A stretch of DNA of 64,000 nt from an uncultured Bacilli bacterium (GTDB lineage: Bacteria > Bacillota_I > Bacilli_A > RF39 > UBA660). The DNA lies in contig CALVYD010000005.1 in NCBI GenBank assembly GCA_944371995.1, positions 4,844 to 68,843 of the forward strand, written 5' to 3'. Made by a program: the position numbers and the translations under genes. Under the pieces are notes generated by a model that did not search any database, was not told where the DNA came from, and saw only the letters and a program-made list of their open reading frames with translations. Below are positions 7,915 through 11,643 of the stretch, one piece after another; position 1 is the first letter of the stretch, and each line of letters starts with the position of its first letter.

Positions 7915-10900
7915 ATGAGTGTAGGAAAGAAGTTAAAGAATAAAAAAGGGTTTACGTTAATTGAATTAATTGCGGTAATCGCTTTGATGGGAATTATTTT
8001 AGTATTGGCATTACCTCAAGTTTCTAAGATTCAACAGGCCAACAAAAATAGAAAATATGAAGCTTATGAAATGTCTATAGAACGAGGTGCTAAACTATAT
8101 ACGGATTCGAATGCCAGAGATATGTTTGGTAATAATAATTCTGGTTGTGTAACAATTCCATATTCTGTTTTGAAATCAAGTAATGTTATCAAAGATTTTA
8201 GTGATTCTGATATTACTTGTTCTAACGATTCTGAAAGTTATGTTAGAATTAGAAAGATTAACGATGATTATCGTTATGACGTTGCCTTAATTTGTAGGCA
8301 AGATGGCGAAGTTGTCTATAAACAAGAAGTAGATACAACCTTTACTTGTACGAACTCTCCAGATACGGAAGTACCAATAATTGAAGCTAGTCCGTCATCA
8401 AAATCTGACTGGGTAAAGCCAGAAGATTTATCGGTAACGATTAAAGTATCAGATGCAAGTGGACTAAATAAAAATACAAGTATTAAATATTACTGGGTAA
8501 ATACGGCTGGAGTAAAGGTAGGAAAAGAATATACACATAACTACAATAATAAAGAGGGAGTAACGAAAGTAAGTTATAAAATACCAAAGAAAAAAGTAGT
8601 AGATGTGACAGGAGAATATTATTTAGTAATAGAACCATATCGAACTACGACAGCGAATGGAGTACAGGATGTATTAGGAAATGATAGAGTAACTGGAGAA
8701 CAATTTGGAACCTATAAAATAGACAATACGAAACCAAGTTGTAGTAATGTAGATGGAGAAAAGACAAGCTGGACGAATACAGATTTTACGATTACGCAAT
8801 ATTGTAGTGATGGAGAAAGTGGATGTGTAAAAGAAAGTTATAGTAAGAAGTTCACAACTTCAACGACAACGCATACCTTTACGATAAAAGATAATGCTGG
8901 AAATACAAATGAATGTAAGGTAAATGTATACTTAGATAAAGAGAAACCAACTTGTGGAAAAGTAACAGGAGAAAGTACAGAATGGACAAATAAAGATAGA
9001 ACAATCAGTGTAAAATGTAAAGAAGAAGAGTATAGTAAATGTAAGCAAGATACCTTTGAAGTAACATTTTCAACTGAAGGAAAGACAGACAATATAGAAA
9101 TAGAAGATAATGCTGGAAATACAACACAGTGTGAAGTAAACAAATATATCGATAAGACACCACCAAAATGTCCAACGATTACGTCATCAACTGCAGCTGG
9201 AACTTGGACCAATAAAGATATTACTTATACCTTTAAATTTACAGATGATACAGAAAAGTATATCTGGTATACCAAGGTAGGCGATGGAGACTGGACAGAC
9301 TGGGGAGAAAATAAAGCAAGTGTAACCCAGAAAACAATATCTTCTGAAGGATATAGAAAAGTAGGAGTACGAGTATATGATTCTGTAGGAAATGAACAGT
9401 TATGTGGAACAGAAGCAACTTATAATATAGATAAGTCAGCGCCAAGTTGTGGAAGTGCATCAGGATCAAGTACGACTTGGACCAATAAAGATAGATATAT
9501 CAGTCAAGGATGTAATGATAGCCTAAGTGGCTGTAGCGCAACCTCATTTAATAAGACATTCACAACCGAAGGAAAAACCGGAGAAATAACCATATCAGAT
9601 AAAGTAGGAAATACGAATACATGTACAGTAAACAAGTATATAGATAAAACAAATCCAACTTGTATCAGTAGTGGAGGAAGTAGTACAGAGACAGTAGATG
9701 CGGTAACGATTATCGGAACATGTAGTGATAACCTAAGTGGATGTACGGGAAATGTATCAAAGACATTGACAAGTGATATGAATCAACAAGTATCACCAGG
9801 AACAGTAAAAGATAATGCCGGAAATGAAACAACCTGTCCAACGCAACAAGTAAATATAAATACGGTACCAAAAAAACCAACGATTAGTAATCCAACGAAT
9901 GGAAACTGGGTAAATTATAGTTTTGCTTTAACAGTAAGCACAACATCACCAAGTAAGATTATAGGATATTGGCAATATAGCTATGATAATAATAGTTGGA
10001 CAACCTATGCCAATTCGGCAACCAACAAATTTACAACAACGAACTTTTCAGTAGAAAGAAATCAATTGGCCTATATTAGAGTATGTAATAAGTCAGGAGT
10101 ATGTTCAGAATCAGCATCGACATATATTAGAATAGATAAAACAGCACCAAGTTGTGGAAGTGTAACAGGAGCAAGTACAACCTGGACAAATAAAGATAGA
10201 TATATCAGTCAAGGATGTAATGATTCAGGAAGTGGATGTAGCGCAACCTCATTTAATAAGACATTCACAACAGAAGGAGTAACAGATAAGATATCTATAT
10301 CAGATAAAGCAGGAAATACAAATAATTGTACAGTAAATAAATATATAGATAAAACGAAACCAACGTTAGGATATAAATTAACAGAAGGAACAACTGGTGC
10401 AACCTACAACTCAGGAACCTGGACAAAATATCCAGTATATCGAGATTTATATCCAGCAGACGAAGGAGGAAGTGGGGTAAAAGAGACACAATTTAATGAT
10501 CATAGTGATACCGAAGGATGGAGACATGAGCCTAATCTAGTATGGTTTGAATTACTTGAAAAAGATCGTATCAGTGAATACCGAGTAATAGATAATGCTG
10601 GAAATATCAGTGATATAGTAACAGTACATTATTTGATTGATCAAACACCACCAACATGTGTAAGTAGTGGAGGAAGTAGTACAGTAACGACAGGTTCAGT
10701 CACAATAAAAGGAACCTGTAGTGATAACTTAAGTGGCTGTACGGGAAATGTATCAAAGACATTTTCTAGTGATATGAATCAATTTGTATCACCAGGAATA
10801 GTAAAAGATAAAGCAGGTAATGAAACCACTTGTCCAACCCAGCAAGTATATATCAGTAGTAGACCAAATAAACCAACAATTTATAATCCAACCAATGAAA

Positions 10901-11643
10901 ACTGGGTAAATTACAATTTCGCATTAACCGTAAAAACAACAACAGCCAGTAGTGACATCGGATATTGGCAATATAGTTATGACAATAGTAGCTGGACAAC
11001 CTATTCTAATTCCGCAACCAATAGTTTTGTAACGACAGACTTTTCTCAGGAAAGGAATCAATTGGCCTATATTCGAGTATGTAATAAAGCAGGATTATGT
11101 TCAGAACCAGCATCAACCTACATTAGAATAGATAAGACACCACCAGAATTTGATGGCTTTGAATATCAATATACCGCACCAGATGCACTTTGTACTAAAG
11201 GATTAACTAATTCTGACACACCATTTATGATTTTTCAAACGCGGGTCTATAATGTCGAAGCACATGATCCAGAAGTGAATGGAGCAAAAAGTGATATTGA
11301 GTATTTTACTATTACACTTTCTCCAACTTACTGGGCTCATAATAATGACGGCACAGTTCAACGTTTACAATGTACAGAAGATAGTTGTTATGATAATGCG
11401 AAAAGATATAAATATCACTATATATACAATATCCAACGCTTAAGTAATGGTCATTATACATTCCCTAGTACACAAGCTAATGCAAGAGTCGAGAATCCAT
11501 ATTATGGAAGTACCAAAGCCTTTTGCGTAGATTGGTGCATGGGTGTTTCAGCAACAGATTATGCAGGTAACGTAAAACATAATAGAGCATACGGAACAGG
11601 AACAGAATGTCCTATTAAGTATAATAATAGTGAGGGATATTAA
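7915..11643 (+). CDS. Giant prepilin-type N-terminal domain protein (megapilin A): class III signal, pilin-like head and cysteine-rich Ig-like repeat passenger
   Basis: Leader MSVGKKLKNKKG/FTLIELIAVIALMGIILVLALPQ has Gly-1, Phe+1 and Glu+5. It is followed by repeated modules ending D-x-AGN..C-x-V-x-x-YIDKT-x-P. I count 40 Cys. The gene has its own promoter and terminator. Confidence 0.85.
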   Translation: MSVGKKLKNKKGFTLIELIAVIALMGIILVLALPQVSKIQQANKNRKYEAYEMSIERGAKLYTDSNARDMFGNNNSGCVTIPYSVLKSSNVIKDFSDSDITCSNDSESYVRIRKINDDYRYDVALICRQDGEVVYKQEVDTTFTCTNSPDTEVPIIEASPSSKSDWVKPEDLSVTIKVSDASGLNKNTSIKYYWVNTAGVKVGKEYTHNYNNKEGVTKVSYKIPKKKVVDVTGEYYLVIEPYRTTTANGVQDVLGNDRVTGEQFGTYKIDNTKPSCSNVDGEKTSWTNTDFTITQYCSDGESGCVKESYSKKFTTSTTTHTFTIKDNAGNTNECKVNVYLDKEKPTCGKVTGESTEWTNKDRTISVKCKEEEYSKCKQDTFEVTFSTEGKTDNIEIEDNAGNTTQCEVNKYIDKTPPKCPTITSSTAAGTWTNKDITYTFKFTDDTEKYIWYTKVGDGDWTDWGENKASVTQKTISSEGYRKVGVRVYDSVGNEQLCGTEATYNIDKSAPSCGSASGSSTTWTNKDRYISQGCNDSLSGCSATSFNKTFTTEGKTGEITISDKVGNTNTCTVNKYIDKTNPTCISSGGSSTETVDAVTIIGTCSDNLSGCTGNVSKTLTSDMNQQVSPGTVKDNAGNETTCPTQQVNINTVPKKPTISNPTNGNWVNYSFALTVSTTSPSKIIGYWQYSYDNNSWTTYANSATNKFTTTNFSVERNQLAYIRVCNKSGVCSESASTYIRIDKTAPSCGSVTGASTTWTNKDRYISQGCNDSGSGCSATSFNKTFTTEGVTDKISISDKAGNTNNCTVNKYIDKTKPTLGYKLTEGTTGATYNSGTWTKYPVYRDLYPADEGGSGVKETQFNDHSDTEGWRHEPNLVWFELLEKDRISEYRVIDNAGNISDIVTVHYLIDQTPPTCVSSGGSSTVTTGSVTIKGTCSDNLSGCTGNVSKTFSSDMNQFVSPGIVKDKAGNETTCPTQQVYISSRPNKPTIYNPTNENWVNYNFALTVKTTTASSDIGYWQYSYDNSSWTTYSNSATNSFVTTDFSQERNQLAYIRVCNKAGLCSEPASTYIRIDKTPPEFDGFEYQYTAPDALCTKGLTNSDTPFMIFQTRVYNVEAHDPEVNGAKSDIEYFTITLSPTYWAHNNDGTVQRLQCTEDSCYDNAKRYKYHYIYNIQRLSNGHYTFPSTQANARVENPYYGSTKAFCVDWCMGVSATDYAGNVKHNRAYGTGTECPIKYNNSEGY
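9430..11130 (+). repeat. In-frame domain-level duplications inside megapilin A (X1 9430-9642, Y1 9643-10134, X2 10135-10347, Z 10348-10638, Y2 10639-11130)
   Basis: X1 and X2 are both DK[ST]APSCGS..TWTNKDRYISQGCNDS.SGCSATSFNKTFTTEG..NKYI. Y1 and Y2 are both D.T.PTC.SSGGSST..CSDNLSGCTGNVSKT..YWQYSYDN.SWTTY..QLAYIRVCNK..STYIRI. Confidence 0.85.

Follow-up and report, generated by a model that had tools for sequence, protein, structure and literature searches.

How a protein that begins like a type IV pilin can continue for more than a thousand further residues, and what it might do at the cell surface, is the question raised by a gene of an uncultured Bacilli bacterium. The gene occupies positions 7915–11643 on the forward strand of a 64,000-nucleotide stretch of contig CALVYD010000005.1, which we refer to as the window, and consists of one open reading frame (ORF) of 1,242 aa, here called paralog A. 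The original prediction for this locus described the product as a prepilin leader joined to a cysteine-rich repeat passenger of ~1,090 aa. This description holds, with immunoglobulin-like (Ig-like) character no more than probable for everything beyond the first domain of the passenger. Our favoured reading, which we hold at about even confidence, is that paralog A is a giant modular protein of the type IV pilin class, an adhesin probably placed at the tip of a filament. Paralog A has the parts by which modular pilins are defined, namely an N_methyl N-terminus, an Ig-like domain, repeat modules and a unique C-terminal domain (PMC8179133).

The N-terminus reads MSVGKKLKNKKG/FTLIELIAVIALMGIILVLALPQ and represents the class III prepilin signal that had been proposed, with scores above the cut-offs of both curated profiles: Pfam N_methyl (PF07963) matched residues 8–33 with 28.1 bits against a cut-off of 21.2, and TIGR02532 reached 27.4 bits against 16.3. 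The leader peptide (aa 1–12, positions 7915–7950, forward strand) is short and basic and ends with Gly(−1), and the junction MSVGKKLKNKKG/FTLIE places Phe at +1 and Glu at +5 of the mature protein. The pilin module that follows (H, aa 13–155, positions 7951–8379, forward strand) opens with ~21 hydrophobic residues and contains F1, E5, G14, and P22 in mature numbering, as in an alpha1 helix of the T4a type. E5, G14, and P22 are the residues for subunit docking and for melting of helix alpha1 in assembled filaments; the role of Glu5 has been discussed elsewhere (PMC9934059).

A topology of the expected type was predicted for this region. Using a 40-sequence family alignment, AlphaFold modeled residues 1–275 with a mean predicted local distance difference test score (pLDDT) of 90.8 and placed helix alpha1 at residues 15–71, strands at 76–82, 109–115, 118–129, and 132–137, and a separate beta-sandwich at 155–269. 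Over residues 71–140 of the predicted head the block-mean pLDDT was 79–94, and the head modeled alone (residues 1–155) had an equal topology at a pLDDT of 83.9. The four cysteines expected in the head, which are conserved, are C78, C102, C127, and C145, in the sequence contexts given for them in the original prediction, and a Pro/Ser-rich linker lies at residues ~145–160. A profile of the family matched alpha1 of solved pilins with E-values from 3e-11 to 1e-5. The best matches were Geopilin (E=3e-11) and Streptococcus sanguinis PilE1 (E=1.5e-9 over residues 9–60, i.e., 52 residues), followed by MshA, Myxococcus xanthus PilA, PAK pilin, gonococcal pilin, PpdD, and GspG. Membership among the ComG pilins was rejected at the NCBIfam equivalog cut-offs, since ComGE reached 30.3 bits (cut-off 49), ComGC 29.3 (75), ComGD 14.2 (70), and ComGF 13.9 (80), and all of these matches were confined to the alpha1N region.

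Using hidden Markov models (HMMs) built from the modules of paralog A itself, we assigned the architecture H-D-a-a-c-a-b-e-a-f-b-e-T, in which H, counted with the leader as aa 1–155, contains four cysteines. All modules are encoded on the forward strand. D (117 aa, aa 156–272, positions 8380–8730) is a cysteine-free Ig-like beta-sandwich domain with AlphaFold block-mean pLDDT values of 91–98. Next come two type-a modules of ~72 aa (aa 273–345 and 346–417, positions 8731–9165), a type-c module of 93 aa with two cysteines (aa 418–510, positions 9166–9444), and a block a-b-e with 4+4+2 cysteines (aa 511–745, positions 9445–10149). The passenger continues with the four-cysteine module a7 (aa 746–816, positions 10150–10362), the cysteine-free module f of 97 aa (aa 817–913, positions 10363–10653), and a second b-e block with 4+2 cysteines (aa 914–1077, positions 10654–11145), and ends with the terminal domain T, which has 165 aa and six cysteines (aa 1078–1242, positions 11146–11640). 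Type-a and type-b modules are 71–73 aa long with four cysteines each, and types c and e 91–93 aa long with two each. At the nucleotide level, the b-e part of 9445–10149 recurs at 10654–11145 with 81% identity and module a4 recurs as a7 with 86% identity; judged by these identities, recent duplication of DNA inside the gene gave rise to the repeated b-e block and module a.

Four cysteines in each 71-aa module had been claimed for the passenger. This applies to the six modules of 71–73 aa, whereas three modules have two cysteines and one has none. The motif D-x-AGN-x3-C-x-V-x2-Y-I-D-K-T-x-P, said to occur in every module, is present in its strict form in just four of them; looser versions, with nine [AV]GN motifs and eight [IL]D[KQ]xxP boundaries in the protein, mark most of the module borders. 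We regard the ten short repeated modules as Ig-like by inference from weak profile matches. Big_3_2 (PF12245) scored 29.8 bits summed over the whole protein (cut-off 23.3), with no single stretch passing and the best one, residues 946–980, in the second b-e block. Isolated four-cysteine modules gave sub-threshold matches to DUF7743 (PF24893, 10 of 32 modules), HYR (PF02494, 5 of 32), and Big_3_2 (5 of 32), and Big_13 likewise matched the module below threshold when it was searched alone. Module f showed a weak OmpL47-type match (NF047446, residues 849–905) that stays far under its cut-off. A profile of the four-cysteine module found no significant sequence match in the PDB, the best being a BIg domain of SiiE (E=0.34), and SiiE- and R28-type domains were the sole, sub-threshold PDB profile matches of the modules (E 0.005–0.3). 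Both the 71-aa four-cysteine module and the C-terminal domain stand outside every Pfam family at threshold. The lineage-specific domain T had no family match at all and yielded five representative clusters in an exhaustive HMMER search of 1.84 billion proteins; we consider it a candidate ligand-binding tip.

The count of 40 cysteines in the product proved exact, and the number is even in every unit of the protein. Cysteine makes up 3.2% of paralog A versus 0.91% of the other ORFs in the window, so that the protein is indeed rich in this residue. To call such richness unusual for an exoprotein of a low-GC Gram-positive was overstated, because the cysteine exclusion rule was shown for aerobic Firmicutes (PMC2823432), and the source organism is probably an anaerobe. 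Anchoring by sortase was considered and rejected: paralog A contains no LPXTG-like motif, and its C-terminus reads ...TECPIKYNNSEGY.

Paralog A is a member of a large family. A protein search with it gave 540 matches among 8,000 scored candidates, and nearly all of the best 120, which are 689–1,907 aa long, carry N_methyl. The sequences come from European Nucleotide Archive (ENA), Logan, and NCBI metagenome assemblies and so far derive from uncultured Bacilli alone. A check for characterized homologs found none, the existing names being automatic ones such as 'prepilin-type N-terminal cleavage/methylation domain-containing protein'; our literature search found no paper on the family, and a scan of JGI metagenomes with the family alignment retrieved nothing beyond generic alpha1N matches of ordinary pilins. 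Among 140 distinct mature sequences, F1 and E5 never vary, while 132 have G14 and 101 have P22. More than 1,000 aa were found in 27 of the 140, and the median cysteine content is 3.7%. The mature cysteine count is even in 103 and odd in 37 (p = 2e-8), and 482 of the 510 type-a/b modules of the family have exactly four.

Family members possess up to ~14 tandem modules and 16–78 cysteines, there are several large paralogs per genome, and module order and number vary between paralogs, strains, and lineages. For example, P0063 consists of H and 13 type-a modules, whereas P0052 has H-c followed by eight b modules and then more. The 856-aa relative P0071 carries convincing TSP1 repeats (TSP1_spondin, E=6e-21) in its cysteine-rich passenger; the thrombospondin type 1 domain is typical of animals. 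Matches of other relatives to Imm1, MIC5, HMBD, T4 gp19, and TSP1 were rejected as short, low-scoring, and driven by cysteines or repeats, leaving P0071 as the single convincing case.

Behind almost all large prepilin genes of the relatives lies an ORF of ~170–270 aa without a Pfam match. Such ORFs were found at 8347–9045 and 9186–9896 of locus L006, 12231–12947 of L012, 12922–13605 of L011, 13411–14091 of L013, 14617–15351 of L026, and 11566–12315 of L010. Those that were translated show an N-terminal membrane anchor, and the ones in L006, L012, and L011 are mutually homologous with conserved cysteines. The product may be a partner or a chaperone of the large prepilin. No ORF of this type was found 3′ of paralog A or of the second paralog in the window.

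This second paralog, which the original prediction overlooked together with the large family of relatives, was one of the two prepilin leaders in a six-frame motif scan of the window, the other being that of paralog A. Paralog B (positions 46424–49729, forward strand) encodes 1,101 aa with 30 cysteines in the order H-D-a-a-c-a-f-b-e-f-T. Its first 582 aa are 85% identical to paralog A, and module order differs after that. The gene had been described as an orphan monocistron; it is indeed self-contained, with no pilus genes in the window, but the presence of paralog B means that it is not unique there. A promoter region of its own had also been claimed. The hexamers TTGACA (7852–7857) and TACAAT (7879–7884) of a putative promoter are present at 7852–7884 on the forward strand, but with a gap of 21 nt the pair is weak by consensus, so that the claim was overstated; our promoter scanner made no call there because the spacer exceeds 18 nt. 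The hairpin terminator reported after the gene is real: a 40-nt inverted repeat with a weak T tail (11644–11683, forward strand, predicted ΔG −22.9 kcal/mol) directly follows the stop codon and is common to paralog B. The latter has a consensus promoter (TTGACA, 18 nt, TATAAT; 46363–46392, forward strand) and a terminator hairpin followed by a T-run (49733–49762, forward strand).

The two genes share the promoter region, the 5′ untranslated region (UTR), and the terminator hairpin, and their nucleotide identity of 86% starts exactly at the −35 hexamer and extends through 1.8 kb. Because the similarity begins at the −35 box and the terminator hairpin is common to both, the duplicated unit was a complete promoter-to-terminator cassette. 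The promoter differences (21 nt and TACAAT in A, 18 nt and TATAAT in B) suggest different expression levels or activator dependence. No convincing repeats for an invertible promoter or for phase variation were detected around the two promoters. In a sister strain, the B locus is occupied by P0006, with the architecture H-D-a-a-c-b-e-f. Just upstream of the B locus, between cvpA and ppdK, a gene at 43251–43547 encodes a thioredoxin of 98 aa with a CGPC motif and no signal peptide, and this position is kept in relatives L011 and L014. This thioredoxin probably resides in the cytoplasm and is then not the disulfide oxidase that is missing.

A giant pilin would need machinery to process and assemble it. 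In agreement with the original prediction of no pilus machinery in the 64 kb, Pfam searches of all window ORFs of at least 100 aa identified no T2SSE, T2SSF, or Peptidase_A24. In three related lineages (L002/L003, L012, and L020-22), we found a conserved block consisting of YqfQ on the opposite strand, T2SSF (496–506 aa), a 253-aa A24 prepilin peptidase, and DnaB; ~6–8 kb of housekeeping genes separate it from the one to three large prepilin genes that lie downstream in tandem. A fourth lineage has the T2SSF/A24 block with no pilin after it. The blocks are located at 1474–3767 of L002, 1–1273 of L012, 8497–10762 of L020, and 8436–10765 of L023. Synteny with the downstream part of the block region is seen in locus L006, which contains three large prepilins, and two of its proteins have counterparts in the window, namely an MtaB-like protein (75% identity) and the adjacent 255-aa protein (70%). 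Judging from these gene arrangements and identities, the source species likely has a prepilin peptidase, and the original claim stands unrefuted on this count. A T2SSF and A24 peptidase pair with no secretion ATPase or small pilin adjacent to it is an unusual stand-alone arrangement, seen here in four Faecimonas-like lineages.

The prepilin peptidases of the relatives are named in NCBI as belonging to Candidatus Faecimonas, placed in Bacilli incertae sedis, or to a Mycoplasmatota bacterium. GC content is ~30%, and one contig of a related lineage measures 1.42 Mb. Genes for a sortase and for YlbD_coat and SpoIIGA-type proteins indicate that the organism has a wall and possibly forms spores. The loci recovered by the peptidase search had a 65%-similar IS605 remnant as their sole sequence in common with the window, and a scan of genome contigs returned three related contigs of metagenome-assembled genomes (MAGs) that contained no machinery.

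From these data we propose the following course of events for a tip adhesin. The hydrophobic alpha1N would insert the precursor in the membrane, a PilD/A24 prepilin peptidase would cut after Gly12 and N-methylate Phe13, and a PilC-type platform would extract alpha1 into a type IV filament, with docking through the conserved E5, G14, and P22. Given a passenger of this bulk, the protein would most likely be a subunit of low abundance located at the filament tip. A disulfide-stapled stalk, which we estimate at ~35–45 nm, would there present the terminal domain as an adhesin, and its ligand could be on the host, in mucus, on particles, or on other cells. Duplication of the self-contained cassette, as in A and B, and shuffling of modules between paralogs and strains would provide a repertoire of alternative adhesive tips.

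Several observations weigh against this proposal. Neither the window nor the 10 kb past its 3′ end contains a prepilin peptidase, a platform, an ATPase, or a small pilin, no contig reaching beyond the 5′ end was retrieved with the genes located there, and a search with the peptidase of a relative, combined with context look-ups, tied no peptidase to the source species. In the 26 family or peptidase loci that we inspected, some by motif scan and the rest by gene tables that list no T2SSE, we saw neither a Walker A motif of the PilB/ComGA type nor a pilin as small as a major pilin, and every ORF with a prepilin leader in them is at least 500 aa long; each locus was seen over ~20 kb only, which makes the absence of an ATPase there weak evidence. 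Foldseek searches against the PDB returned no pilin for either model, with a best E-value of 0.8 for the head alone and, for the 1–275 model, weak Ig-like matches alone (Calx-beta/CBD and TapA beta-sandwiches, E >1e-3). As to whether residues 30–160 are pilin-like, the AlphaFold topology is right and confident, whereas the Foldseek comparison gives no pilin. The 21-nt spacer of the paralog A promoter is non-consensus, and with so weak a promoter expression is unproven. Finally, disulfide formation, tip location, adhesion, and ligand are all things that we infer.

The strongest competing explanation, possible if rather unlikely in our view, is a surface adhesin that is never polymerized. Here, the class III signal would serve for membrane insertion and PilD cleavage alone, alpha1N would anchor the mature protein in the cytoplasmic membrane, possibly with help from the PilC-like protein, and the poly-Ig stalk by itself would span the wall. 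The lack of an ATPase and of a small major-type pilin in the loci examined, where all prepilins have at least 500 aa, agrees with such a protein, as do the T2SSF/peptidase pair without an adjacent ATPase in four lineages and the several large paralogs per genome. By our estimate, a stalk of ~11 modules could also cross a Gram-positive wall unaided. On the other hand, the invariant E5 and the strongly conserved G14 and P22 are residues that matter for filament assembly and not for cleavage; the conserved PilC-type platform implies an assembly machine; and slices of ~20 kb per genome make an unseen ATPase a poor argument. A tip or minor pilin and a non-filament surface protein that uses the prepilin pathway were the alternatives put forward in the original prediction, and these are the two readings that the evidence leaves open.

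An unlikely variant centers on the machinery: the stand-alone pair of PilC-like protein and peptidase of this clade, lacking both a dedicated ATPase and a small major pilin, would serve a giant, disulfide-stapled, module-shuffling 'megapilin' multigene family, the products of which would form either membrane-anchored stalks or self-polymerized bottle-brush filaments. Improbable is the idea that the giant pilins are polymerizing major subunits of a thick 'bottle-brush' filament, with alpha1 helices in the core and Ig stalks radiating from it, comparable to what is known of giant flagellins. The assembly residues are all conserved, no smaller pilin was found near any family member, and a linker and an Ig domain come immediately after the small head, all of which favours this idea. 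The steric and energetic demands speak against it, divergent paralogs with different module orders in one genome suit alternative tips better, the promoter of paralog A is weak, and we know of no precedent among type IV filaments. It is very improbable that the prepilin pathway serves for export alone and that proteolysis later releases the passenger to become a soluble or matrix protein: the protein lacks an LPXTG or other C-terminal anchor and has the Pro/Ser-rich linker at ~145–160, but neither a cleavage site nor a protease partner is evident, and the alpha1 assembly residues are conserved though needless for release. That the gene is a chance ORF or pseudogene with a prepilin-like N-terminus is practically negligible, given more than 500 homologs with the leader in common, confident AlphaFold models, conserved cysteine parity, and a 99%-identical 1,242-aa protein with the same neighbors in an independent ENA metagenome assembly, an equal-length copy which shows that paralog A is being maintained and did not arise as an artefact of assembly.

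The immediate surroundings of paralog A contain no further pilus genes. As described earlier, its neighbors are recD2 (5384–7576) and a gene for an XRE-HTH protein (11879–12649), which carries a transmembrane segment. Between recD2 and paralog A lies an ORF of 55 aa (7614–7781), and a terminator-like hairpin with a 9-bp stem and a T7 tail (7773–7794, forward strand, ΔG −16.8 kcal/mol) ends this ORF and isolates paralog A from recD2. Control by a riboswitch, as in c-di-GMP-regulated clostridial pilins, was rejected because Rfam finds a single tRNA alone in the window. This tRNA gene (61258–61331) lies inside ORF 61090–61398, which is therefore probably spurious.

Pfam identified recD2, parE/parC-like genes, hrcA-grpE-dnaK-dnaJ, thyA, folA, and ppdK as housekeeping genes of the window. 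An ORF of 481 aa without a Pfam match (16036–17481) is located between gyrB/parE-like 13985–15886 and gyrA/parC-like 17490–20069 and is conserved in the independent assembly L001. At 208–3043, a surface protein with SpaA/Flg_new repeats is followed by a sortase, and in L001 (1–2285) a VWA/LRR/DUF285 protein of 833 aa precedes both; the organism is therefore equipped for surface display through sortase as well. A protein of 630 aa (23371–25263) combines a ricin-B-type lectin domain with a glycine-rich domain of ALK/LTK type (PF12810, E=2e-32), for which receptor kinases of animals are the best-known source. A TnpB-type protein (54236–55435; IS605 OrfB, Cas12f1-like TNB domain) is also encoded, and a degenerate relative of it adjoins the T2SSF/peptidase block in L023. 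ORFs without a Pfam match at 1e-5 are those at 31908–34547 (879 aa), 51730–54144 (804 aa), and 20160–21857 (565 aa, nine cysteines).

Returning to the favoured tip-adhesin reading, modular pilins occur widely, with over 1,200 proteins spread across 264 architectures and a most extreme length of 860 aa in a 2021 InterPro survey (PMC8179133), and their predicted place is the tip of the filament (PMC8179133, PMC9934059). The closest parallels are S. sanguinis PilB, which carries a vWA domain, and PilC, which carries a lectin domain. Like paralog A, they come from a monoderm host, have a class III signal with Glu5, and combine a small pilin module and a short linker with non-pilin modules and a predicted adhesive role at the tip (PMC8179133, PMC9934059). 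PilB has ~50 kDa and one extra domain and is encoded within a complete pil locus, whereas mature paralog A has an estimated ~130 kDa, 11 additional modules and a terminal domain that is novel, 40 cysteines, and no pilus gene nearby. The KilN proteins of the M. xanthus Kil (Tad) system resemble the family in that they are large paralogous pilins whose exposed domains vary and for which many disulfides are predicted, and these minor pilins act as interchangeable tips that set target specificity (PMC12075869). Unlike paralog A, the Kil system is of the Tad/Flp type, belongs to a diderm, builds heterotrimeric tips from kilLMN clusters, and has no poly-Ig stalks.

The type IVb initiator and tip minor pilins CofB of enterotoxigenic Escherichia coli (ETEC) and TcpB of Vibrio cholerae, and ComZ of Thermus thermophilus, are roughly 420–550 aa long. 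As in paralog A, a pilin module is joined in them to signature-less beta-rich domains (PMC8179133). They are located at the tip and differ from paralog A in their diderm hosts, their genes in pilus operons, and the lack of repeated cysteine-stapled modules. Giant non-fimbrial adhesins such as Salmonella SiiE (BIg repeats, PDB 2yn3) and streptococcal R28 have a tandem Ig-like rod with strands of the DxAGN...D-x-T type in common with paralog A; unlike it, they are exported by a type I secretion system (T1SS) or by Sec and sortase, are anchored in other ways, and have no pilin module. The non-polymerized alternative also has a counterpart. The sugar-binding proteins of the Sulfolobus bindosome are archaeal proteins with class III signal peptides that are not filament subunits, and they resemble a non-polymerized paralog A in that the prepilin pathway displays large functional proteins at the surface. 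They differ in being archaeal, PibD/Bas-dependent, and solute-binding.

While the principle of the modular pilin is already known, the scale is new, as the family reaches 1,907 aa versus 860 aa. Also new are a poly-module, cysteine-stapled stalk without a Pfam family at threshold, the lineage-specific terminal domain, and a multigene set of module-shuffling, self-contained cassettes in uncultured Bacilli with small genomes. New as well, and puzzling, is that no ATPase or small-pilin genes were seen nearby in the ~20 kb covered per locus. In addition, abundant paired cysteines in an exoprotein of a Firmicute raise the question of the route by which disulfides are made.

The versatility of type IV filaments owes much to minor pilins, and modular pilins are a recently recognized way of putting effectors on filaments. 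Should the stand-alone pair serve the megapilins, in whichever form, this would represent a previously undescribed surface-display route in a monoderm. If no filament is assembled, bacteria, like archaea, would use the prepilin pathway for general surface display. If paralog A and its relatives are tip adhesins, they would be prime candidates for colonization and partner recognition in this uncultured lineage of Bacilli.

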